The notes beneath the pieces are model-generated. The model searched no databases. It had not been told where the DNA came from and saw only the letters and a list, made by a program, of their open reading frames with translations. A stretch of 39,195 bases of DNA from Escherichia phage JEP4. A program made the translations under genes and the position numbers. The stretch's first letter is position 1. Every line of letters begins with the position of its first letter. The stretch lies in sequence record MT740315.1; one strand, 5' to 3'. This document shows, piece after piece, positions 10,637-28,664 of this stretch.

Positions 10637-12001
10637 ATGGCTACGTGGCAACAGGGTATTAATTCTGGTGGTTTTCTGGCTGGCATTGGTGCGCAAAATG
10701 AGAATGCACCAAAAGCAAGCGACATTAACGCAACGCTTGGTCTGATCCGCGAAAACAATGAATTGGCTCGCTCAGGTGCAAATAACGTTGGTCTGACCGC
10801 GTTACGTGGTCTGGCTGGAGTTGCTGATATTTATAAGCAGGAACAGCAACAGAAAGCGATTAATGCGTTCAATAAGGTTCACGCTGATGCATGGGCTTCT
10901 GGTGATCCATCGGGACTATTTAAGTTTGCCAAGGAAAATCCAGCGTTTGTTGCGCAGGCACAACAGGCGTTTTCCGGTCTTAATGAGCAGCAACGCAACG
11001 ATATGGGCGATTTAGCCATGAGGGCTAACGTCGCTCTTTCTCAGGGACCAGAAGCCTACAGTAAATTCATTACTGATAACAAGGACAGGTTAAATCGCGT
11101 GGGGGCGAATGCTGACTGGATGATTCAGACAGGTATTCAGAATCCAGAGCAGCTATCACACATGCTGACTACTATGTCTCTCGGTGCACTTGGGCCAGAA
11201 AAGGCGTTTGCTGTTCAGGACAAGATAGCTGGTCGTGAGATTGACCGAGGCAGACTGGCAGAGACAATCCGCAGCAATAAGGCTGGAGAGGCGCTAACAG
11301 CACGCGGTCAGAATATCACGATGCGCGGTCAGGATTTATCGATGCAGAGAGCATCAATGAAAGGGTCGGTTGGGAATAATGAGCGTACAGTTCAGTTAGC
11401 AGATGGCAGAACTGTAACGGTAGGCGGGAAGCTTCACGGCGCTGGGGCTAATGCGTTCTACGAAGGTATCGACAACGAGGGGAATATGGTTCGCGTTCCT
11501 GCTGGCTCTATTGCCGCTCCGGCTACATCGGCAGCAAGCGCGCAGAATTACGCAATGAAGAAAGATCTTGATGCAATTTCTGGTGCATCAATTGACGATC
11601 TTGGCTTCATGACTGGCATTACAGGCTCTTCAGGTTCTCCTGCTCTTGGTGCAGATATTCGTAGCCGTGCATCTGGTGGTGATCAGAGGAAACTATACAA
11701 CGCTGCACAGCGAATCCAAGGAAAGATGCAGAATCAGGGCATTGCAGCAGCCAGAGACATGGGGGCATCCGGTATCAACACCGTTGCAGAAGCAAAGATG
11801 TATTTTCAAGGTATGCCACAGGTTGATTTCTCAAGCCCTGAAGCACTGCAACAATCAATGCGCGACATTCAGCAATATACCGACAATTACAACCAACAAT
11901 ATAACGTTAATGTTGGTAAATCTCAGCGGCAGCAATCTCAACCTACACAGGTATCACAGCCAGCAGCCGGCAGTAACTTTTCTTCACTATGGGGTGATTA
12001 A
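10637..12001 (+). CDS. Ejection protein, gp20-like
   Basis: 454 aa; synteny. Confidence 0.6.
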
Positions 12002-13866
12002 TGGCTAAAGCATGGAAAGATGTTATCGCCTCTCCACAGTATCAGGCGTTAACTGAAGAACAGAAAGCACAGGCTCAAGCGCAATATTTTGATGAGGTTG
12101 TTGCCCCTAAGGCTGGTGACAAATGGGCTGAAGCAAGAGATCAGTTTTATGCAGCATACCCTCCACCTCAGCAGCAGAAAGAAGAACCATCATTGATGCA
12201 ACAAGCTGGCGATTGGCTCACTGGTGGTCAAAGTGCAGGGCAAATTGCAGAGCAGGCTGGTCGCGGTCTGGTAAACATACCATTTGACGTATTGCAGGGT
12301 GGCGCAAGTCTGATTAATGCAATCAGTCAGGGGCTTGGTGGGCCAAAAGTATTGGATGATGTTTATCGTCCAGTAGACAGACCGACAGACCCCTACGCGC
12401 AAGCTGGAGAAACAATTGGCGGGTATTTAGTTCCAGGAGTTGGAACGGCAGGAAGCATGGCTATTGGATCACTGGCAGAGGCCGCAAACCAGAAAGGTGA
12501 TTTCGCGCAAAATGCAGCCATAAATGCCGGAGTTAACCTTGCCGCTCAGGGGGTTCTTTCCGCAGCAGCAAAGGGAATAGGGCGTGGAATTACTGCTGTT
12601 CGTGGCGAAATATCACCAGCAGATCAGCAATTGCTCAAGCGTGCCGCTGCGGCAGATGTACCAGTTATGACATCGGATGTAGTTCCTCCAAAAACAAAAC
12701 TTGGCAATCAACTGCAGGGTTACTCAGAAGGAGTCATAGCTGGGACTGGACCAATGAGAGCCGCACAGCAGGATGCTAGAACCAAGCTTGTTAATCGCTT
12801 CACCGAAAAATACGGCGACTACGATCCATCTGTAGTCGTTGATAGTCTAAAGTCAGGCGTTGCAAGGGAAAAATCGTTAGCCAAGTCAAAACTAAACAAC
12901 CTGTCAGGAAGAATGGTTGGAAAGCCAGTTGATACAAGTGGCGCCATAAGAGCTATCGACGGAGCAGTAAACGAACTTGGGAAACTTAAAGGTGTTTCTG
13001 ACACCCAGACCATTTCTGCGCTTAATGATTATAAGAATGCCATTCAGGAGATAACAAATGGAGATGATGCCTTTGAGTTACTTGATAAGCTGAGAACTCA
13101 GTTCCGCATTGACGTAAAAGGCGATCGTACAGTTCTGCCATCAATGTCGCAAACAATGGTCGACAGGGTCTACAACTCGCTAACCAATAGCCTTAGTAAA
13201 TCTATAGCGAAAGGACTTAGCCCAAAAGATGCTTCAGCATGGAGAGCGGGAAAAGCTGATTATGCAAAAATGGCAACACATGCAACTCAAACGCGCCTTA
13301 AAAACGTTCTAAATAAAGGAGATTTAACTCCCGAGGCTGTAAATACCATTGTGTATGGACAATATGGGTCAGATATAGCTCGATTGTACGGGAAACTCGA
13401 TCAAAAAGGTAAAGACATGCTAAGGGCGGCATATATCAGCAAAATAGCTGACAAGGTAGGTGACAGCCCTCAGAAAATGATGACCGAGCTTGGCAAGCTG
13501 CAAAAACAAGCAAATGGTCAGGTGTTTAAAACTGTATTTGGTGGGAAGAACGGAAAAGAGATAGAGGGGATGTTATCTATTCTCGATGCTACCAAAAGAG
13601 CATCTGAGGCTAATGTTGTGACGAAGACTGGCATGACACTCGCGCCTTTGGTAAGGGTTATTGGTAACCTAAAAACCGGAGGCGCGCTATTGGCTGGGGA
13701 AACAGGGATTGGCCTTATGTCGAGGGTTTATGAAAGCCCTATGGCCAGGAATGCGCTCTTACGTCTGGCAAACACCAAAGCAGGAACGCCAGCCTATGAA
13801 AGAGCATTAAGTAACGCTGCAAATGCCATCAGACCGCTGCTTGCCACTGAGGCAACACAGCAGTGA
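12001..13866 (+). CDS. Ejection protein, gp16-like
   Basis: 621 aa; synteny; last gene of the virion block before the accessory island. Confidence 0.6.
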   Translation: MAKAWKDVIASPQYQALTEEQKAQAQAQYFDEVVAPKAGDKWAEARDQFYAAYPPPQQQKEEPSLMQQAGDWLTGGQSAGQIAEQAGRGLVNIPFDVLQGGASLINAISQGLGGPKVLDDVYRPVDRPTDPYAQAGETIGGYLVPGVGTAGSMAIGSLAEAANQKGDFAQNAAINAGVNLAAQGVLSAAAKGIGRGITAVRGEISPADQQLLKRAAAADVPVMTSDVVPPKTKLGNQLQGYSEGVIAGTGPMRAAQQDARTKLVNRFTEKYGDYDPSVVVDSLKSGVAREKSLAKSKLNNLSGRMVGKPVDTSGAIRAIDGAVNELGKLKGVSDTQTISALNDYKNAIQEITNGDDAFELLDKLRTQFRIDVKGDRTVLPSMSQTMVDRVYNSLTNSLSKSIAKGLSPKDASAWRAGKADYAKMATHATQTRLKNVLNKGDLTPEAVNTIVYGQYGSDIARLYGKLDQKGKDMLRAAYISKIADKVGDSPQKMMTELGKLQKQANGQVFKTVFGGKNGKEIEGMLSILDATKRASEANVVTKTGMTLAPLVRVIGNLKTGGALLAGETGIGLMSRVYESPMARNALLRLANTKAGTPAYERALSNAANAIRPLLATEATQQ

Positions 13867-13883
13867 CTAAATGCCATGGATGG

Positions 13884-14072
13884 TTATTTCCTTAGCACAT
13901 GAAACAATGTTTGCTTTAATTCCACCCATACAATTATGACCACTATAGACAGACAAAAGAAACTGAATGCATTGGCATCACGATCGAAACCTTCTCCGGC
14001 ACTAAATCCGTAAAAGGTCATAAAAAATATAAAAATTGCGCACTTTGCAACGTTTACAAATTTTTTCTTCAC
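13884..14072 (-). CDS. Small predicted 2-TM membrane protein (62 aa), GTG start
   Basis: GTG start preceded by AAGGAGGT Shine-Dalgarno at 5-nt spacing; two hydrophobic segments (VAKCAIFIFFMTFYGF and FSFFCLSIVVIIVWV); co-oriented downstream of the CI-like gene. Confidence 0.55.
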   Translation of the reverse strand: MKKKFVNVAKCAIFIFFMTFYGFSAGEGFDRDANAFSFFCLSIVVIIVWVELKQTLFHVLRK

Positions 14073-14132
14073 ACCAACCTCCTTAGTTTTGAGCAGGATA
14101 CCAGATGATAATGTGTCGCCTCCTAAAGGATA

Positions 14133-14774
14133 TCAAAGCAACGGGATTTCAAGGTAAACTGCGGTTGCCAAAATACTAACATCTTCATTTCTAACAAGAA
14201 TATTAGGATACATTGGGTTTAGGGATACTAGGTTTGTCTCTATTTCACCAATGTAAACCTGTTTGAAGCTCAATATTTGCTCTTTATCCAATGATGCTAT
14301 TACATAATCTTTGCTTTTAGCTTTTACTAGAGGGCTGAACGTGACAACCGATCCTCTGGGAAAGCTAATACCTGAACTTGTAGTCATAGCTTCACCTTCA
14401 ATAGTCAATGCAAATGCAGAGTCACCAACATTGTATATTGCAGGATGAAATCTAGACGATGAATGTTCACCTGTGTTTAGGTAATGCATAACTTCATCTA
14501 GTTTGAGAATTGGTATTTGCTTTACCAGAACGTCAGGCATGACGTTTTTTGTTCCCGGACCCTGACCTTCACCTAGAGCTAACCACTCAGCCGTAGTACC
14601 TAATGCGTTGGCTAATGCCTGCAATACCCGAAGCCGTGGTTTAGCCTCACCACCCTCGTATGCAGCTATTTGACGTTGAACAACACCAGCTAATTTTGAC
14701 AACTGCGCCTGCGTCATACCCCTGGACTGTCTTGCCAGAGATACTCTTGATGGGAATTGATCGTCAAAATTCAT
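14133..14774 (-). CDS. CI/LexA-like repressor: HTH_XRE N-domain plus degenerate S24 peptidase-like C-domain
   Basis: N-terminal HTH (GMTQAQLSKLAGVVQRQIAAYEGG); C-domain aligns to the c2 S24 domain in this window but has GEAM where c2 has GDSM, with Lys retained (SFKQ vs TFKK). Confidence 0.8.
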   Translation of the reverse strand: MNFDDQFPSRVSLARQSRGMTQAQLSKLAGVVQRQIAAYEGGEAKPRLRVLQALANALGTTAEWLALGEGQGPGTKNVMPDVLVKQIPILKLDEVMHYLNTGEHSSSRFHPAIYNVGDSAFALTIEGEAMTTSSGISFPRGSVVTFSPLVKAKSKDYVIASLDKEQILSFKQVYIGEIETNLVSLNPMYPNILVRNEDVSILATAVYLEIPLL

Positions 14775-14795
14775 TAGTTCACCATAAAAAATTCA

Positions 14796-14824
14796 TTGAC
14801 TCATACTGAGTGTGAGTGAATAAT
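14796..14824 (+). promoter_or_regulatory. Candidate sigma70 promoter for the Arc-like/antirepressor operon
   Basis: TTGACT, 17-nt spacer, AATAAT, about 50 nt upstream of Arc-like ATG. Confidence 0.35.
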
Positions 14825-14873
14825 CAAACTACAAAAAGTGAGATTATGAGTTTTTCAAAAACAGGAGTGCATA

Positions 14874-15047
14874 ATGACTGAAAAGATATCTTCCATCAAG
14901 CCGCGTCAGGTTCGTTTTACAGAAAAGGTTGATTCACATATCCGCGAATCAGCAAAAAGATGCCATAGGTCAATTCAGGCAGAGATAGCTTATCGAATGG
15001 AGTTATTAATGAAACTTGAGGCAAAGGGCGATGTTGTCATCCAATAA
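14874..15047 (+). CDS. Arc-like ribbon-helix-helix repressor (57 aa; below ORF-track cutoff)
   Basis: Read directly: MTEKISSIKPRQVRFTEKVDSHIRESAKRCHRSIQAEIAYRMELLMKLEAKGDVVIQ; AGGAG SD 6 nt upstream of ATG; beta-strand plus two helices pattern of Arc/Mnt RHH family; first gene of operon. Confidence 0.6.
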   Translation: MTEKISSIKPRQVRFTEKVDSHIRESAKRCHRSIQAEIAYRMELLMKLEAKGDVVIQ

Positions 15048-15120
15048 AAATAGTGAAGCCCGGCAGTGCGCGAACACAAACCGGGCCTCTATGTCAGTAA
15101 CCGTACTCAAGGAAACTAAC

Positions 15121-15759
15121 ATGAATATTGTAGCAAAATCAGATTATAACTTCCAAGGATTCACTTTTAACCCTGTAACAGAGGGCGGGTCTATCTGGTT
15201 TACCTCCACCGAACTAGCTAAGGCTCTCGGCTATAAAAAAACTGATGCCATCAGCCAAATTTATGCCCGTAATGCTGACGAATTTTCCGACTCAATGTCA
15301 TTGACCCTCAATATGAAGGTCAACGGAATAAACAATAGCTTACGTAACAAATCGGTCAGAGTTTACTCACTCCGAGGCGCTCACTTGGTGGCGATGTTTG
15401 CTTCTACGCCCAAGGCCAAAGAGTTCCGCCGCTGGGTGCTGGATATTTTGGATCGGCAGGCAGAATGCTCACCGATTGCAAAACAGTTCACTGACGAAGA
15501 GCTGGTTAATCTCTGCTACTTACAATTGTGGATGGAGAAGAGTCAACAAATGTGCAAACACATCTACCCAGGAATGAAGCAAATTGGTTCTGAGCTTTCA
15601 GGAAGGATTTACGATATTGCATATGAGACTCGCTACATGTCAGAAGAAACCAAGAAATCACTTCTTCGTGAAATGAAGAATCTTGATACCAACAATTTTG
15701 TCGTAAAGAACGCTCAGCCAATGCTGGCAAAACTTCGCGGCGAGGAATGGATTCATTGA
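15121..15759 (+). CDS. Antirepressor-family protein with Bro-N domain
   Basis: Begins MNIVAKSDYNFQGFTFNPVTEGGSIWFTSTELAKALGY (Bro-N-type); AAGGA SD; ORF-track start 15016 is an upstream extension overlapping the Arc-like gene. Confidence 0.75.
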   Translation: MNIVAKSDYNFQGFTFNPVTEGGSIWFTSTELAKALGYKKTDAISQIYARNADEFSDSMSLTLNMKVNGINNSLRNKSVRVYSLRGAHLVAMFASTPKAKEFRRWVLDILDRQAECSPIAKQFTDEELVNLCYLQLWMEKSQQMCKHIYPGMKQIGSELSGRIYDIAYETRYMSEETKKSLLREMKNLDTNNFVVKNAQPMLAKLRGEEWIH

Positions 15760-15846
15760 TTGGTGCGCCGGACTGCGCAAAAGAAAACCGCCAGTGTGCT
15801 GCTGGCGGCCTATGTCACACCCTTACTACCACATAAGGAATGCCTA

Positions 15847-16572
15847 ATGACTTTTAAGAATGTAGCAAACATCGGATCCGTTGTCACGGATAAAACCATT
15901 GACAGCCAAAGTCTTCTGATGATGGTTAATGAAGCTCGCAAGTTATGTGGAGAGCCATCAGTACGTAACAACAAATTCATCGAGAAAATTGAGGATGAAT
16001 TGGAAGGCGAGACCTACACAAAAAGTGTAGGTCGGAAAAACGGGGCTGACATTGATGTTATCTCCATGACTATCAAGCAGGCGCTTCGTGTTGCTGCTCG
16101 CGAATCTAAAGCAGTTCGCCGAACACTTGTAGACAAACTTGAAAGTATGCAGGAAGCGCACATTAAAAGCGGTAAATCAGCGAGTGGACTTGTTGAGTAT
16201 CGTCAAGCGCGAACATTGAAAATGACGGTTGAAGCTGTTACCAATCTGTTCGATCTGATGCCAAATCTTGCGCCGGAGGCAAAGCAGACAGCGGCAGCAA
16301 GTATAATCAACCCGCTCGTTGGTTTTAATGCAATACCTCTTCCGGCAATAGAAGAGCATTACTACTCAGCAGGGGAGGTTGCAGAGCAGCTTGGAGTAAC
16401 GGCCAACAAGATTGGTCGCATTGCTAACGCAAACAACCTCAAAACTGAGCAGTACGGGAAGTTCTTCCTGGATAAATCTGCGCATTCCAGCAAACAGGTG
16501 GAAGCGTTCCGCTACAATGAGGAAGGTGTTAAAGCACTACAACACCTTATTCATGGGAGTAATGTTGCATAA
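15847..16572 (+). CDS. Second antirepressor-like protein (Rha/ANT-like)
   Basis: 241 aa from ATG 15847 with AAGGAA SD; N-terminus resembles the Rha-type N-domain of the 33188 gene; domain call from recalled patterns only. Confidence 0.55.
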   Translation: MTFKNVANIGSVVTDKTIDSQSLLMMVNEARKLCGEPSVRNNKFIEKIEDELEGETYTKSVGRKNGADIDVISMTIKQALRVAARESKAVRRTLVDKLESMQEAHIKSGKSASGLVEYRQARTLKMTVEAVTNLFDLMPNLAPEAKQTAAASIINPLVGFNAIPLPAIEEHYYSAGEVAEQLGVTANKIGRIANANNLKTEQYGKFFLDKSAHSSKQVEAFRYNEEGVKALQHLIHGSNVA

Positions 16573-16793
16573 TGGCAAAGAAAAAATATGGCATTATGCC
16601 GCCAAGAATCAAAGGAAGAGCCAGGGTAAAAGGCGATGCTGGAAGGTATCACATTCTTGGAGTTCTGTGGCATGAGAGAGCTTTAATTTTAAGTAGGCCT
16701 CATGGGTACATTGAAAAGGTATCTATAGATAGAGTAGAGATTCTTCCCCTTACACCTGAAGAAGAAGAAACGTACGGACTTTTTGATAACTAA
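16572..16793 (+). CDS. Hypothetical protein (73 aa), last gene of antirepressor operon
   Basis: TAATG start/stop overlap with upstream gene; followed by terminator. Confidence 0.45.
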   Translation: MAKKKYGIMPPRIKGRARVKGDAGRYHILGVLWHERALILSRPHGYIEKVSIDRVEILPLTPEEEETYGLFDN

Positions 16794-16802
16794 CCAACTA
16801 AA

Positions 16803-16824
16803 CCCGCTTAATCGCGGGTTTTTT
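16803..16824 (+). terminator. Rho-independent terminator closing the antirepressor operon
   Basis: CCCGC-ttaatc-GCGGG followed by TTTTTT; hairpin overlaps the last codons of the convergent mnt homolog. Confidence 0.6.
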
Positions 16825-17065
16825 CTTTTCTAAGGATATCAGCCGCAACTTCTTTTACTCGTTCCGAGATTAATGAGTCCAGCCTCTCTTCTTCATCACG
16901 ATACCCGCTTACAGGTGATGGTTTGGAGAGTGATTCTTCCATCGTAGCCACAATTTCGGAATTGATAGACCTGTTATTCATTTTTGCACGCTGCTTAATC
17001 TTAGCGTGCAACTCGTGCGTAAGCCTCAAGTGGAACTGCGCCTCATCGTATTTGCTGTACATCAT
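16808..17065 (-). CDS. mnt: Mnt-like RHH repressor
   Basis: RHH core FHLRLTHELHAKIKQRAKMNNRSINSEIVATMEESL and tail SKPSPVSGYRDEEERL match recalled P22 Mnt (GRSMNSELLQIVQDALSKPSPVTGYRNDAERL); start at MMYSK with GGTGAGG SD; ORF-track 17146 start is an extension. Confidence 0.8.
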   Translation of the reverse strand: MMYSKYDEAQFHLRLTHELHAKIKQRAKMNNRSINSEIVATMEESLSKPSPVSGYRDEEERLDSLISERVKEVAADILRKEKTRD

Positions 17066-17481
17066 CAATGCCTCACCAAATGGGTGGAATGGCATCGTAA
17101 AACCTACTGTACAAATCAACAATCGTACCGTTTCGGTATGTAACAAATGCTCACCGTAGCCATGCTGCGGCGATTCCTTGTATCTGGAGCAAATTAAATG
17201 ACAGATATTATAAATAGGAATTGTTATTTAATAATGTTTGAAAATAAAAATCATGGACGATAGGAATAAAGGTATTACTTGTTTTTATTTTTGTAAGTGA
17301 CGCATTAAGCGCATAAATAATATGCCTGTTGATCAAGATTCTTGAGTATTGTAAAATAATCGTTTTGTTCATGTTGCATGGTTTTTAAATGAATAGAAGG
17401 TTATTTTTCAAAACAATTGCATCTTTGTCTGCAGTCATTCCGTTTTCTTCAATATCTAAATCTTCAAACAGGATGACTAAT

Positions 17482-19539
17482 ATGCCTGATATAACCCCAA
17501 ATGTTGTAATTGGGATGCCATCGCAACTCTTCACAATGGCTAGCTCTTTTAAAACCGTAGCAAATGGAAAAATTTATATCGGTAAGATTGACACAGATCC
17601 GGTAAATCCAGAAAACCAGATTCCAGTATATCTGGAACGAGAAGATGGTACTTATGTTCAGGTGCCACAGCCAATCGTTATCAATGCTGCTGGATACCCG
17701 GTATACAACGGACAGATTTCCAAATTCGTTACCGTGCAAGGCCATTCTATGGCTGTTTACGATGCATATGGTACGCAGCAGTTCTATTTTCCGAATGTGC
17801 TGAAATACGACCCGGATCAGTTAAGACAAGAGTTAGCAACAGAGGGTAATGAAATACTTGTTGACGACTCCCGTATTGCAGTTAAAAGTGTTCATGTAAA
17901 TTCAAAACTTAGAACACAGCACAATAAAAACGCAGAAATAATCACGCCAAATGATTTTATATCAAATTATGACATGATATCTGCAGCTATTAACTCTGGA
18001 GAGAGTGCCGCAGTATTTAATTCCAGGTATGCATTCACAATAACAGTTGGGGAATATGGTAATTTTAAATCTATTAGTGATGCTCTAAACTCAGCTGTTG
18101 CACTGCGTCCACTATGGAAAAATGGCATTGATTTTTGCATAATTAAAATTCTTTCCGGTTTTGTGCTCAATGAGCAAATAGAAATTTCAGCAGGATGTGA
18201 CTTATCATGGATTAAAATAATATCAGAAGACTCAGTGGTTTTCTCTGATACCAGTTTGTTTACTAAAACTGTTAGGACGTATTACGAATACAAATATTTA
18301 TTTTACATTTGCGATGCAGCAAAAAGTCCTGTATTTGCTATTCAGATTGAAGAAAATAGAGATGATAGCGATGTTTGTGCATTTATTGTAACTCAAAAAG
18401 CTGAACTTAATTTCTATCCGTATTCAGGTGCTCGAAAGTTCTACGTTGGAATTCATGGTAGTTTTGGTGCAAAAATTAGTGCATATCATACCGGATGTGC
18501 TCCTGATGAGGAAAGTGTTGCTGCATATATGCCAGAAGGGTATTACGTATGTGATTTTTCTTATAGCAGATACTCTTCCCTGCAACTGGTAAATAATGTC
18601 AAGGCATCAATGCCTGTAAGCAAGTTTGAACGGTGCACAGAGAGTACGGTTGCGTCAGTTAATTGTATTTATAATGTTAAAGCAGATTTTCAGGGGTCAA
18701 GTGCAAGCTATTGTTATATAGGATGGAATGTAAGAGATGGTTCAAATGTTAATATACGCGACCATAAAACTATACATTGCTCATATCGTGGATTAACCTG
18801 CATTCATACAGCATATGTTGATGCAAGACGACATGACGTTGAAGAAAGTGATGCAGAAACAAGTGGTAAAGTCCTTGAACCAAATATTGAAAAAGGTTTT
18901 TATGGATGTGCACTTGGTGTGCGTATTGATGGTGCGGGTTGTGTTGATGTTGCTGGTAATGATATGCGCAATTGTGGAACAGCCGTTAATGCAGACACTG
19001 GTGCTGTTATTTCAGGAAAAGCTGTAGATATCTCAGGGGCTGAGTTGGGATTTGATTGCCATGCAGGAGCATCTGTTAATTTTCCAAGGCTATGGGGTAC
19101 AGATATAAAAAAATTAATGCACCTCCAAGATGGTGTAAGGTTTAACTCTAATATTTGTCATGTATTTGGTGCAAATCCCACAAAAGATATTAGATGGATT
19201 GATGTAGAGAGATCTGAAGCTTCTTTTATGAATGCAACGCTGGATGCAGATTCAGGATTTATTGCTGACTGTGGTAGTAGGATAACCATTGAAGGAAGTA
19301 AAGTTAAAAACCAAACAATAAGAAGTTTTTTTGGATCACATGTGGCTATAAATAATACTGTTGCTGACAGAACTTATTCAGATATAGCCGATGTTCCGCA
19401 GTTGACTATTAGTGGAGGATCTTTTATTTCTGCTACAGGATATTCTAATTCTGACTCCAGCCCTCTTAGGTTGAGCACAACACGAAATACACTTGGAGTT
19501 GGAGGAGCCATATTTTCAACCAATGGGGAAGTTTCATGA
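17482..19539 (+). CDS. Tailspike protein: P22-family head-binding N-domain plus divergent receptor-binding domain
   Basis: N-terminus MPDITPNVVIGMPSQLFTMASSFKTVANGKIYIGKIDTDPVNPENQIPVY matches the P22 gp9 head-binding domain pattern; remainder is AT-rich and unrelated to my recollection of P22 gp9; ORF-track start 17389 is an extension. Confidence 0.85.
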   Translation: MPDITPNVVIGMPSQLFTMASSFKTVANGKIYIGKIDTDPVNPENQIPVYLEREDGTYVQVPQPIVINAAGYPVYNGQISKFVTVQGHSMAVYDAYGTQQFYFPNVLKYDPDQLRQELATEGNEILVDDSRIAVKSVHVNSKLRTQHNKNAEIITPNDFISNYDMISAAINSGESAAVFNSRYAFTITVGEYGNFKSISDALNSAVALRPLWKNGIDFCIIKILSGFVLNEQIEISAGCDLSWIKIISEDSVVFSDTSLFTKTVRTYYEYKYLFYICDAAKSPVFAIQIEENRDDSDVCAFIVTQKAELNFYPYSGARKFYVGIHGSFGAKISAYHTGCAPDEESVAAYMPEGYYVCDFSYSRYSSLQLVNNVKASMPVSKFERCTESTVASVNCIYNVKADFQGSSASYCYIGWNVRDGSNVNIRDHKTIHCSYRGLTCIHTAYVDARRHDVEESDAETSGKVLEPNIEKGFYGCALGVRIDGAGCVDVAGNDMRNCGTAVNADTGAVISGKAVDISGAELGFDCHAGASVNFPRLWGTDIKKLMHLQDGVRFNSNICHVFGANPTKDIRWIDVERSEASFMNATLDADSGFIADCGSRITIEGSKVKNQTIRSFFGSHVAINNTVADRTYSDIADVPQLTISGGSFISATGYSNSDSSPLRLSTTRNTLGVGGAIFSTNGEVS

Positions 19540-22228: not shown

Positions 22229-23058
22229 TTCGCCTCCTGCGGCGGTTCTGGTAGCGGCATCCAGAACAAGGCGTTCCCTAACCACGATAAAGTGCCGTCG
22301 CTCAACTCCACGTATTCCCCTTGTACCTGTCCTGCCATATACTCGCCGTGCTTTGAATAAATTAAAATCCAATCATCTTGAGGGGGCATTCGCTCACTAC
22401 AGCTTATCCAACCATCCGGAGTTACCGGATAGTTGCCCGATAGTGCATTCTGCTCCAGTGATGCTTTTACAAACCACGCTGCCTGAACTATAACGCCATG
22501 AATCCAGCGCAAATCAGCATCGCGATCTTTCTTTTTCATCTTTTCGCCACTTAAGGCCTTGCTTATGTGGCTGCATACCAGGTCTTCATGTAATTCCTTC
22601 GCCTCCTCAATGGTGAAACCACCAGGCAGAAGAGCCGGAGTTACCGGAGAGCTGGTTGACGCTTCCGGGATTTTCCGAAAATTATTGGTTGACGAATCTT
22701 TATTTTCCCGAAAGTTTCCGGACTGAAGCATGGCTTCGCGGCAATCGTTCCAGCCTGTAGCGTATGCAGCCGCTTTGCTGCTGCCTTCAACTGGCGCATC
22801 CTGCCAATACATTTCTTCCGGCACTACCTGCACCTGAGGGGTGGCGTAGAGTGGAATTCCTCCCCCTCCACCAGAAAATTCATTGCGAGCGTTATACTCA
22901 CGACCATCTGCGTCATCACGCATCCACGCCACCGGTTCTGCTTCCAGCGATGCCAGGGCGATTTCATAAGCCCGGCGTTCAATATTGTCTCGAACGTCCA
23001 GGCTGCTGATACGCTCTTTGATTTCTTTAATCAGTTCTTTGTCGGTTAAAGTGGTCAT
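22225..23058 (-). CDS. Hypothetical protein with C-terminal DUF551-like domain
   Basis: 277 aa; C-terminal WISCSERMPPQDDWILIY motif typical of DUF551 in lambdoid early-left regions (recalled). Confidence 0.55.
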   Translation of the reverse strand: MTTLTDKELIKEIKERISSLDVRDNIERRAYEIALASLEAEPVAWMRDDADGREYNARNEFSGGGGGIPLYATPQVQVVPEEMYWQDAPVEGSSKAAAYATGWNDCREAMLQSGNFRENKDSSTNNFRKIPEASTSSPVTPALLPGGFTIEEAKELHEDLVCSHISKALSGEKMKKKDRDADLRWIHGVIVQAAWFVKASLEQNALSGNYPVTPDGWISCSERMPPQDDWILIYSKHGEYMAGQVQGEYVELSDGTLSWLGNALFWMPLPEPPQEAK

Positions 23059-28013: not shown

Positions 28014-28664
28014 TTATGGAAGGTTTGCTAGTTTTGCATCGACAACTACGCCGATGATTTTGCAGTTTCCGTTGATCTCGATCATCGGATATTGTGGGTT
28101 AAGTGGTTTTAGAAACTTCCTGCCTGCATCAATAACTAACTTCTTGAAAGTTGCCTCGTTTTCTCCTTCTAGCTTTGCAACTACCAGTTTCCCGTTACGC
28201 GGCTCTACTTCAGGATCGACGAGTATTATCATTCCTTCAGGGATACTGAGACCGGCCGGAGCCGTCATTGAGTCTCCCTTCACGTCCAACCAAAACGAAT
28301 CTTCTGAACAGTCTACGGTTGTATCGTACCAGTTATCTATTGCACGCTTATGATATGGTTCTACAGCTTCCATCCAGCATCCTGCGCTCACCCAGCTAAT
28401 CAGAGGGTATGACCCTCTTGGATCATGCCTACTGTGATAGGCAATGTTTGAAAGACTTTCCTCTCCTTTCATCAGATAGTCAGGGGAACACTTCAACGCA
28501 TTAGCCAGGGCGAGAAGATTCTCTCCATTTGGCTCTGTCTCAGAGCGTTCCCACTGAGATATGGCAACATTAGACACGCCGACCATCTTTCCAAGTGCGG
28601 CCTGCCTGATCTTGAGTTCTTTTCTCCGAGCGCGAATGCGCTCTCCCATCAATTGAGTTTTCAT
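28014..28664 (-). CDS. c2: Prophage repressor, P22 C2-type (HTH plus S24 peptidase)
   Basis: MKTQLMGERIRARRKELKIRQAALGKMVGVSNVAISQWERSETEPNGENLLAL matches P22 c2 as recalled; intact catalytic GDSM and FKK; Ala-Gly in linker. Confidence 0.95.
   Translation of the reverse strand: MKTQLMGERIRARRKELKIRQAALGKMVGVSNVAISQWERSETEPNGENLLALANALKCSPDYLMKGEESLSNIAYHSRHDPRGSYPLISWVSAGCWMEAVEPYHKRAIDNWYDTTVDCSEDSFWLDVKGDSMTAPAGLSIPEGMIILVDPEVEPRNGKLVVAKLEGENEATFKKLVIDAGRKFLKPLNPQYPMIEINGNCKIIGVVVDAKLANLP

Follow-up and report, generated by a model that had tools for sequence, protein, structure and literature searches.

An intact variant of the P22 immI module with two predicted cis-antisense RNAs in Escherichia phage JEP4

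The window analyzed here, a stretch of 39,195 nucleotides (nt) from Escherichia phage JEP4 (MT740315.1), represents a P22-like (Lederbergvirus-type) prophage of Escherichia coli, in which a rightward operon of four genes at positions 14874–16793 occupies the place of the P22 immI region. We conclude that this region is probably the P22 immI ('ant moron') module in one of its widespread variants, preserved intact, with activities inferred for its products. Its most interesting element is a predicted second sar-like antisense RNA, of which our literature searches turned up no description and which constitutes a directly testable prediction; a first antisense RNA, further upstream, is a predicted homologue of P22 sar. 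The operon and its putative control elements are listed below (aa, amino acids; RHH, ribbon-helix-helix).

14796–14824, plus strand: operon promoter (Pant analogue), TTGACT-17-AATAAT
14799–14851: candidate operator half-sites, repeats at the −35 element, in the spacer and beyond
14874–15047, plus strand: 57-aa Arc-like RHH candidate (Arc analogue), WP_021518013.1, phrog_10182 at 2e-37
15040–15119, minus strand: predicted sar-homologous antisense RNA, about 80 nt
15121–15759, plus strand: Bro-N + P22_AR_C protein, 212 aa, positional counterpart of P22 ant
15127–15156, minus strand: Psar-like antisense promoter, TTGGAA-18-TACAAT with TG in front, within the first 12 codons of the Bro-N gene
15776–15851, minus strand: predicted second sar-like antisense RNA, about 76 nt
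15847–16572, plus strand: 241-aa protein, phrog_1726
15859–15887, minus strand: second antisense promoter, GTGACA-17-TGc-TACATT, in codons 5–14 of the 241-aa gene
16572–16793, plus strand: 73-aa protein, phrog_4977 at 5e-54
16800–16821, plus strand: intrinsic terminator closing the operon, common to the convergent mnt-like gene

The two predicted antisense cassettes

The second cassette consists of a minus-strand terminator (15811–15785, then TTTTCTTTT) in the spacer between the Bro-N gene and the 241-aa gene, together with a minus-strand promoter inside the latter. The hairpin and T-run were present in 17 of 17 loci, with compensatory changes in four of nine pairs, and the T-run was found just on the minus-strand side of the hairpin. 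At an identical offset in 18 of 18 loci, the minus strand reads GTGACA, then 17 nt of spacer, TGn and TAmAkT. In these 18 loci, the third positions of codons 5, 6, 7, 12 and 13 of the 241-aa gene were invariant, neighboring third positions were 39–67% conserved, and the amino acids at codons 5–7 and 12 varied. The predicted RNA, running from about 15851 to 15776, would cover both the start codon and the Shine-Dalgarno (SD) sequence of the 241-aa gene. In Salmonella phage SPN3UB, the same terminator lies before, and a TCGACA-17-TGc-TACATT promoter inside, a gene for an unrelated ORF6N protein, so that the movement of the cassette does not depend on the protein family. It was absent beside the homologues of the 241-aa gene in Stx phages.

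Several results count against a second sar-like RNA. Although the predicted RNA folds as two hairpins, it does so only moderately better than shuffled sequences (z −2.5), and a covariance model built from 22 sar-type sequences, the window's own included (R1), found no match at the second cassette at E ≤ 10. Furthermore, the 18–22 loci that enter the cassette counts are related by descent, so that these counts do not represent independent events. Homology of the two cassettes was not supported by the covariance model, just short strings being common to both (TGTAGCAAA; GGCCT(C)TATGTCA). Because the sar model fails to detect the second cassette, we describe it as analogous to sar, sharing the same design, and not as homologous.

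The case for the first RNA starts from the spacer between the RHH and Bro-N genes, which aligned with the arc–ant spacer of phage epsilon34, where sar and Psar are annotated, and with those of 20 other loci. The consensus over these 22 loci forms the two-hairpin structure of sar, with compensatory changes in 10 of 18 pairs, and a −10 element, TAyAnT, was located at +7 to +12 of the coding sequence in the Bro-N position in every one of them, including epsilon34, in which it belongs to the annotated Psar. The predicted RNA, from 15119 to about 15040, spans the SD sequence of the Bro-N gene and ends at the stop codon of the RHH gene; it folds with a minimum free energy of −29.4 kcal/mol (z −4.2) and was scored at 73 bits by R1. 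Against this identification, the Rfam sar model (RF00262) remained below threshold in the window, both across 13000–18500 at E ≤ 5 and across 15020–15180 at E ≤ 10, and the Rfam scans of the window returned chance-level matches only, to symR, Trp_leader and a miRNA. Since the Rfam model detects the epsilon34 positive control (95.6 bits) and not the window, we place the first RNA outside the current model; on the aligned sequences, it is predicted to be a true but divergent homologue of P22 sar. The sar of P22 and epsilon34 is an experimentally defined RNA (references in PMC2629481).

A weak R1 match was also recorded at 22516–22606 on the plus strand (20 bits, E 0.012, under a rough calibration), far from immI and probably due to chance. 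Many matches to the operon among E. coli genomes begin at approximately 15041, at the RHH stop codon and sar terminator, with an Arc-family gene replacing the 57-aa gene, and the SPN3UB match stops at 15809, in the second terminator; the antisense terminators thus coincide with recombination joints.

Proteins encoded by the operon

The original prediction described an Arc-like RHH gene followed by two tandem antirepressor-family genes. The RHH-like gene and the first antirepressor-family gene were upheld, and the second gene fits that description only by its predicted fold. The 57-aa open reading frame (ORF) is preceded by AGGAG at 14863–14867, 6 nt ahead of its ATG, and both this SD sequence and the TTGACT-17-AATAAT upstream are as originally described. 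The family to which it belongs comprises 30 protein clusters from Escherichia, Salmonella, Klebsiella, Serratia, Hafnia and Yersinia, whose full-length members are 81–93% identical, and more divergent members hold the same position, beside the same repressor type, in seven other loci.

That a small Arc-like protein opens the operon is borne out mainly by the family profile (A5). When this profile was compared with the PDB, the 12 best matches were all RHH proteins, among them AmrZ (5.7e-4), single-chain Arc (1.5e-3), Arc (0.025–0.044), CopG (0.03) and Mnt (0.52). The family and the solved RHH proteins have in common a strand/helix A/turn/helix B register, ..vRl...........A....RS.n.EI..r, and 7 of 12 family members matched Pfam Arc at E ≤ 0.05 (best 2.6e-4). 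Two results speak against the assignment: the 57-aa protein itself falls under the cut-off of Pfam Arc (PF03869; 16.0 vs 20.4 bits), and an AlphaFold2 (AF2) monomer model, computed from a shallow alignment and uninformative where the fold is an obligate dimer, shows one long helix (residues 12–50; predicted local distance difference test, pLDDT, 83.6) and not strand-helix-helix. It likewise stayed under the cut-off of Pfam ParD_like (19.8 vs 23 bits). We therefore refer to the protein as an Arc-like RHH candidate, divergent from Arc in sequence.

For the Bro-N gene, the start at 15121 is given by RefSeq and the Prokaryotic Genome Annotation Pipeline (PGAP), is preceded by AAGGAA 5 nt upstream, and coincides with the ATG at which 21 homologues begin with M-N/K/S-I/S/T-V/I; the start at 15016 in the automated ORF list is thus an artefact, as had been suspected. 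The resulting 212-aa protein scores 42.2 bits with Pfam Bro-N, for which 25.6 are required, and 50.7 bits with P22_AR_C, for which 22.4 are required, and its C-terminus aligned by BLASTP with residues 177–274 of the epsilon34 Ant (29% identity over about 100 aa, E 1e-10), which places the first large gene in an antirepressor family. The epsilon34 protein, a homologue of P22 Ant, combines P22_AR_N (153.6 bits) with P22_AR_C, whereas P22_AR_N is not present in the 212-aa protein, whose N-terminus is Bro-N. Because the C-terminal regions align and the N-termini differ, the 212-aa protein is, by sequence, an Ant counterpart with an exchanged N-domain, and as a positional and partial sequence counterpart of P22 Ant it is the most likely candidate for a repressor-binding antirepressor. 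It is 99.5% identical to gp21 of SPN3UB. Comparable combinations exist elsewhere: an AntA + P22_AR_C protein is present in Stx2a phage F451, and the Ant of phi24B, which has a C-terminal domain in common with P22 Ant, has been proposed to promote efficient prophage induction (PMC3064807).

The 241-aa protein matched phrog_1726, 'anti-repressor', at 2e-102, and its second-gene label of 'Rha/ANT-like' in the original prediction agrees with its predicted fold and its domain-shuffling partners and with no sequence model. In the AF2 model, which is of moderate quality (pLDDT 69), a helical linker joins an alpha/beta N-domain to a C-terminal winged helix of predicted MerR type; among predicted viral structures its best matches were KilAC, antirepressor, KilA and Rha-type proteins (E 1e-7 to 1e-4). 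Residues ~87–241 are found fused to Bro-N (locus L023, 304 aa) or to KilA-N (locus L016, 251 aa), and residues 1–103 are found with other C-termini, a C-terminal module shuffling that is typical of KilAC. Several findings weigh against an antirepressor assignment. No Pfam family was matched at E ≤ 0.1, ANT (PF03374), Phage_pRha (PF09669), KilA-N, Bro-N and AntA included, so that domain searches placed only the first of the two large proteins in antirepressor families; the family is not significantly similar to HK022 Roi (Rha + ANT); and AriS, in which an AntA, Bro-N or pRha N-domain precedes a KilAC C-domain in the 'anti-repressor'-type architecture, is an inhibitor of the SOS response (PMC9043618), showing that 'anti-repressor' labels on such architectures can be wrong. 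NCBIfam returned nothing relevant, the PDB gave no sequence match, whether the protein itself or its family profile served as the query, and Foldseek with the model returned nothing significant from the PDB. The label 'Roi', carried by one phage record, was dropped because the hhalign match of the family alignment (A1) with HK022 Roi was non-significant (probability 0.3). On the model, then, the 241-aa protein may be assigned to an unnamed family that is KilAC-like at the level of predicted fold, and a second antirepressor, a partner subunit and an AriS- or Roi-like regulator are its candidate roles.

A duplication origin of the two large genes was rejected: the 212-aa and 241-aa proteins are without sequence similarity to each other, so that duplication followed by divergence does not apply, and the suggestion that one copy may have been retargeted is not supported, as the two are not copies. 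Homologues of the 241-aa protein with ~62% identity were also seen in the early-left region of Stx2a-converting phages (locus L059, 2992–5205, of phage F451, and locus L060), with an 'antirepressor' of the AntA + P22_AR_C type and a pseudogene of an antirepressor close by. Both protein types are neighbors there too, in the opposite order and without an antisense cassette.

The 73-aa gene lies inside the span of the original prediction, which had left it out. Its start overlaps the stop of the 241-aa gene as TAATG, and the gene is translationally coupled to the 241-aa gene. A tblastn search of 50,697 phage records found no match to the 73-aa protein, and the gene is absent from the loci of the 241-aa family in other genera. 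At its position SPN3UB carries an unrelated 90-aa coupled gene.

Promoter, repressors and gene order

The genes on either side of the operon are as follows (HTH, helix-turn-helix).

12001–13866: gene 16-type DNA-transfer protein
13884–14072, minus strand: 62-aa predicted membrane ORF, phrog_21338, just downstream of the 213-aa repressor and on the same strand
14133–14774, minus strand: 213-aa HTH + S24 CI/LexA-like repressor, divergent from the operon
16808–17062, minus strand: Mnt homologue, 84 aa, convergent to the operon, adjoining the tailspike gene
from 17482: tailspike gene, P22-type head-binding domain

The operon thus lies between homologues of gene 16 and gene 9 (tailspike), which confirms the immI-type position originally assigned to it. 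The 3.6 kb surrounding it is 100% identical to prophages of several complete E. coli genomes, and the RefSeq/PGAP gene calls in those identical prophages are exactly the genes derived here. A side observation concerns phage L, for which an 'orf62' of unknown function has been described in a degraded immI region; the window also has a 62-aa ORF, at 13884–14072.

The promoter at 14796–14824 matches 10 of 12 consensus positions. Since the promoter scan as a whole was at chance level (7 sites vs 8.4 expected), the call rests on position and on the retained TTGAC −35, which was found at the equivalent spot in six of seven homologous intergenic regions. An ACTCA-tac-TGAGT palindrome spans the −35 element and spacer, more TGAGT/GTGAG repeats occur within 14799–14851, and an imperfect inverted repeat is located at 14820–14847. 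Homologous loci have their own, different repeats at the equivalent place, and our search for an operator motif common to them yielded just weak repeats; the repeats at 14799–14851 are candidate operator half-sites only as a guess, a point that tells against our reading of how the promoter is repressed. Direct SOS control of the operon was rejected because a LexA-box search found nothing at the operon promoter.

The divergent 213-aa protein matched Pfam HTH_3 at 48.4 bits and Peptidase_S24 at 47.9 bits. In an alignment that included lambda CI, LexA and the immC repressor of the window itself (28014–28664), it has GEAM instead of GDSM, exchanging the catalytic Ser for Ala, and has no Ala-Gly at the cleavage position, with the catalytic Lys retained; in the immC repressor, the Ser, the Lys and the Ala-Gly are all intact. 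The same repressor type is always paired, in the seven other loci, with a 56–58-aa RHH protein from the family of the 57-aa protein. From these residues, the 213-aa repressor is predicted not to self-cleave, and, by analogy with P22, it is likely to serve the operon promoter as a non-inducible maintenance repressor, taking the part of Mnt: as the self-cleavage Ser and the Ala-Gly are gone, it would act like Mnt, unresponsive to RecA. The prophage accordingly has two CI-type repressors, of which just the immC one appears RecA-sensitive by its catalytic residues.

The right-hand Mnt homologue matched Pfam Arc (54.6 bits), is annotated as 'Arc family' by PGAP and contains SKPSPVSGYR, as does P22 Mnt. 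We considered it unlikely as a regulator of the operon: a Citrobacter locus (L007) has a left-hand Mnt/Arc pair in addition to a right-hand Mnt homologue, 89% identical to that of the window and in the equivalent place. The right-hand Mnt homologue is probably a separate unit, not the operon's repressor. An AT-rich spacer of about 420 bp, with a rightward promoter-like site at 17329–17357, extends from it to the tailspike start, and the mnt–tailspike unit also occurs in the same Citrobacter locus, in a Buttiauxella locus (L014) and, beside a homologue of the 241-aa gene, in Klebsiella phage phiKp_30. This unit may set tailspike expression.

Distribution, alternative readings and biological meaning

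To the original prediction, two antirepressor-like genes in tandem appeared unusual; the pair is instead a conserved syntenic module in many enterobacterial genera. A scan with the 241-aa family in one genome per species yielded 54 loci, and a Bro-N homologue was directly upstream in 14/14 other-genus loci with a full-length or near-full-length 241-aa homologue (L005–L015, L026, L029 and L030, about a dozen genera). Among the named hosts were Serratia, Pantoea, Citrobacter, Proteus, Erwinia, Kluyvera, Buttiauxella, Dryocola, Intestinirhabdus and Atlantibacter. Across these 14 loci the first protein is 37–65% and the second 42–78% identical, and the upstream regulators are either of the Mnt/Arc type or of the CI-like/RHH type. 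In E. coli, the operon was matched in 112 of 5426 complete genomes (~2%); in 34 of these, the match spans 80% or more of the operon.

The variability of the region, the HS type included, was described in 2008 by Villafane et al., who termed it the 'ant moron', counted ten types in sixteen genomes, and remarked that the HS-1 and CUS-3 types seem to be without arc and that HS-1 must be controlled differently (PMC2629481). In E. coli HS ('HS-1'), the repressor and the 57-aa protein are identical to those of the window and the Bro-N/P22AR_C gene is the same, whereas the 241-aa gene is truncated by IS3 and the 73-aa gene is gone; the window therefore holds the intact form. Candidates to fill the apparent arc gap of the HS-1 type are the 57-aa RHH-like protein, the predicted homologue of sar and the second cassette.

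With the immI regions of P22 and epsilon34, the window shares the position between genes 16 and 9, a divergent maintenance repressor facing an RHH-led operon, a sar cassette between the RHH and ant-position genes with Psar in the first codons of the latter, and the P22_AR_C domain. By contrast, the window has a CI-like HTH + S24 protein without the catalytic Ser in the Mnt position, a very divergent RHH family in the Arc position, Bro-N in place of the Ant N-domain, the additional 241-aa and 73-aa genes, a second antisense cassette, and an mnt homologue on the other side, beside the tailspike gene. The SPN3UB region (gp19–gp23) likewise has a 57-aa Arc-like protein, the Bro-N/P22AR_C protein, a second gene of ~260 aa, a small coupled gene and both cassettes; it differs in its Mnt/Arc-type regulators, in its ORF6N second gene, unrelated to the 241-aa protein, and in sitting among siphovirus tail genes. 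In P1 and P7, immI encodes the c4 antisense RNA, icd and ant1/ant2, Ant1 and Ant2 being in-frame products of one gene. There, as in the immA region of N15 (cA RNA, antA, icd, antB), a small antisense RNA limits an antirepressor and there is more than one 'ant' product; N15 pairs antA with an antB of unknown role (PMC4488713). However, the RNAs of P1, P7 and N15 are cut out of the sense transcript and have their target sites upstream, whereas those predicted in the window are cis-antisense, with the promoter inside the target gene, and the protein families differ from the window's. AriS-type regulators resemble the 241-aa protein in its two-domain architecture, by predicted fold, and in a C-terminal module fused to Bro-N or KilA-N, as is KilAC (PMC9043618); the 241-aa protein is nevertheless without a sequence match to ANT/KilAC, AntA or pRha, and AriS belongs to another host clade.

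By analogy with P22, we propose that the promoter at 14796–14824 drives one rightward operon encoding the 57-aa RHH, 212-aa, 241-aa and 73-aa proteins and ending at 16800–16821. In the lysogen, the divergent CI-like 213-aa repressor would keep this promoter off, and after infection the RHH protein would shut it down again in the manner of Arc. Translation of each large gene would in addition be limited by a short cis-antisense RNA of its own, which would start in the first codons of its target, run across and pair with the ribosome-binding site, and end at the leftward terminator in the spacer. The Bro-N/P22_AR_C protein would bind C2/CI-type repressors, and the 241-aa protein would be its conserved partner, as a second antirepressor or another regulator. 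A more specific version of this proposal, to which we give a little less than an even chance, holds that the operon is under two independent cis-antisense RNAs, of which the second is a portable 'terminator-to-promoter' cassette that overlaps the first codons of the following gene and has spread with at least two unrelated families (phrog_1726 and ORF6N); that the 241-aa protein founds a KilAC-like family with a job other than repressor binding; and that two separately dosed activities would be released on infection.

How the two large proteins divide their work admits other readings. It is quite possible, if short of probable, that the 212-aa protein is the sole antirepressor and that the 241-aa protein is a co-expressed DNA-binding or host-directed regulator with another target, such as an AriS-like SOS modulator or a Roi-like lytic factor. 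The missing Pfam antirepressor match, the resemblance of the modeled C-domain to a MerR-type DNA-binding winged helix, the precedent of AriS, annotated as an antirepressor yet inhibiting SOS, the Stx2a homologues outside immI that have no antisense cassette, and the separate predicted antisense control of the 241-aa gene all fit this possibility, but the strict synteny of that gene with the Ant counterpart across genera suggests a common task, the best fold matches are annotated as antirepressor or KilAC (though these are annotation names only), and nothing in its sequence connects the 241-aa protein with AriS or Roi. Alternatively, the adjacency could reflect a physical complex, the two proteins forming one two-subunit antirepressor or one modulating the other, as might be compared with Ant1 and Ant2 of P1. 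This we regard as unlikely. P22 Ant works alone, separate antisense RNAs would permit uncoupled dosage, and in SPN3UB the 99.5% identical Bro-N protein is followed by the unrelated ORF6N protein, which argues against a tightly co-evolved interface; yet the pair has stayed adjacent despite its divergence, the C-terminal two-thirds of the 241-aa protein occur in single-chain fusions with Bro-N or KilA-N, and N15 immA likewise has antA plus antB (PMC4488713).

Two further explanations would change the nature of the region itself. The hairpins in the spacers might only stop leftward read-through or structure the rightward mRNA for processing or stability, with the apparent promoters reflecting coding or translation-initiation constraint; the promoter scan was not above chance as such, and constraint for translation initiation is common in 5' coding regions. 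We consider this rather improbable, given that the P22/epsilon34 homologue of the first cassette is an experimentally defined RNA (references in PMC2629481) and that, in the second cassette, the frozen bases are exactly the −35, TG and −10 elements at 17-nt spacing while amino acids vary, the T-run is confined to the minus-strand side, and in SPN3UB the cassette accompanies an unrelated gene. It is more doubtful still, indeed very unlikely, that the operon is a moron of benefit to the lysogen, acting in superinfection exclusion or abortive infection through toxic Bro-N/KilAC-type effectors silenced by repressors and antisense RNAs. The region has been described as a moron in which gene flux is rapid (PMC2629481), the Bro/KilA-type Gp07 of phage phi11 inhibits growth when overexpressed (PMC5944126), and the layered negative control resembles that of toxic genes. 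However, PADLOC found no defense-system match for any operon protein, with the repressor HTH alone giving a match, and the gene layout is that of P22 immI, with a homologous sar and a P22_AR_C domain in common with the genetically defined P22 Ant.

Collectively, these findings bear on P22 immI as the textbook case of layered control by two repressors and an antisense RNA, the control of whose variants has been open since the 2008 remark. For one common type, they supply candidates for the missing parts, namely a divergent RHH protein, a CI-like repressor predicted to be non-cleavable and a sar homologue missed by Rfam. If both RNAs are real, the operon would be a compact natural example of gene-by-gene antisense dosing, in which promoter elements dictate N-terminal codons of the very proteins that they control. 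The conserved pairing of an Ant-like with a KilAC-like protein would, moreover, offer a good system for determining the true roles of proteins annotated as 'antirepressor', roles that bear on prophage induction and on cross-talk between prophages.

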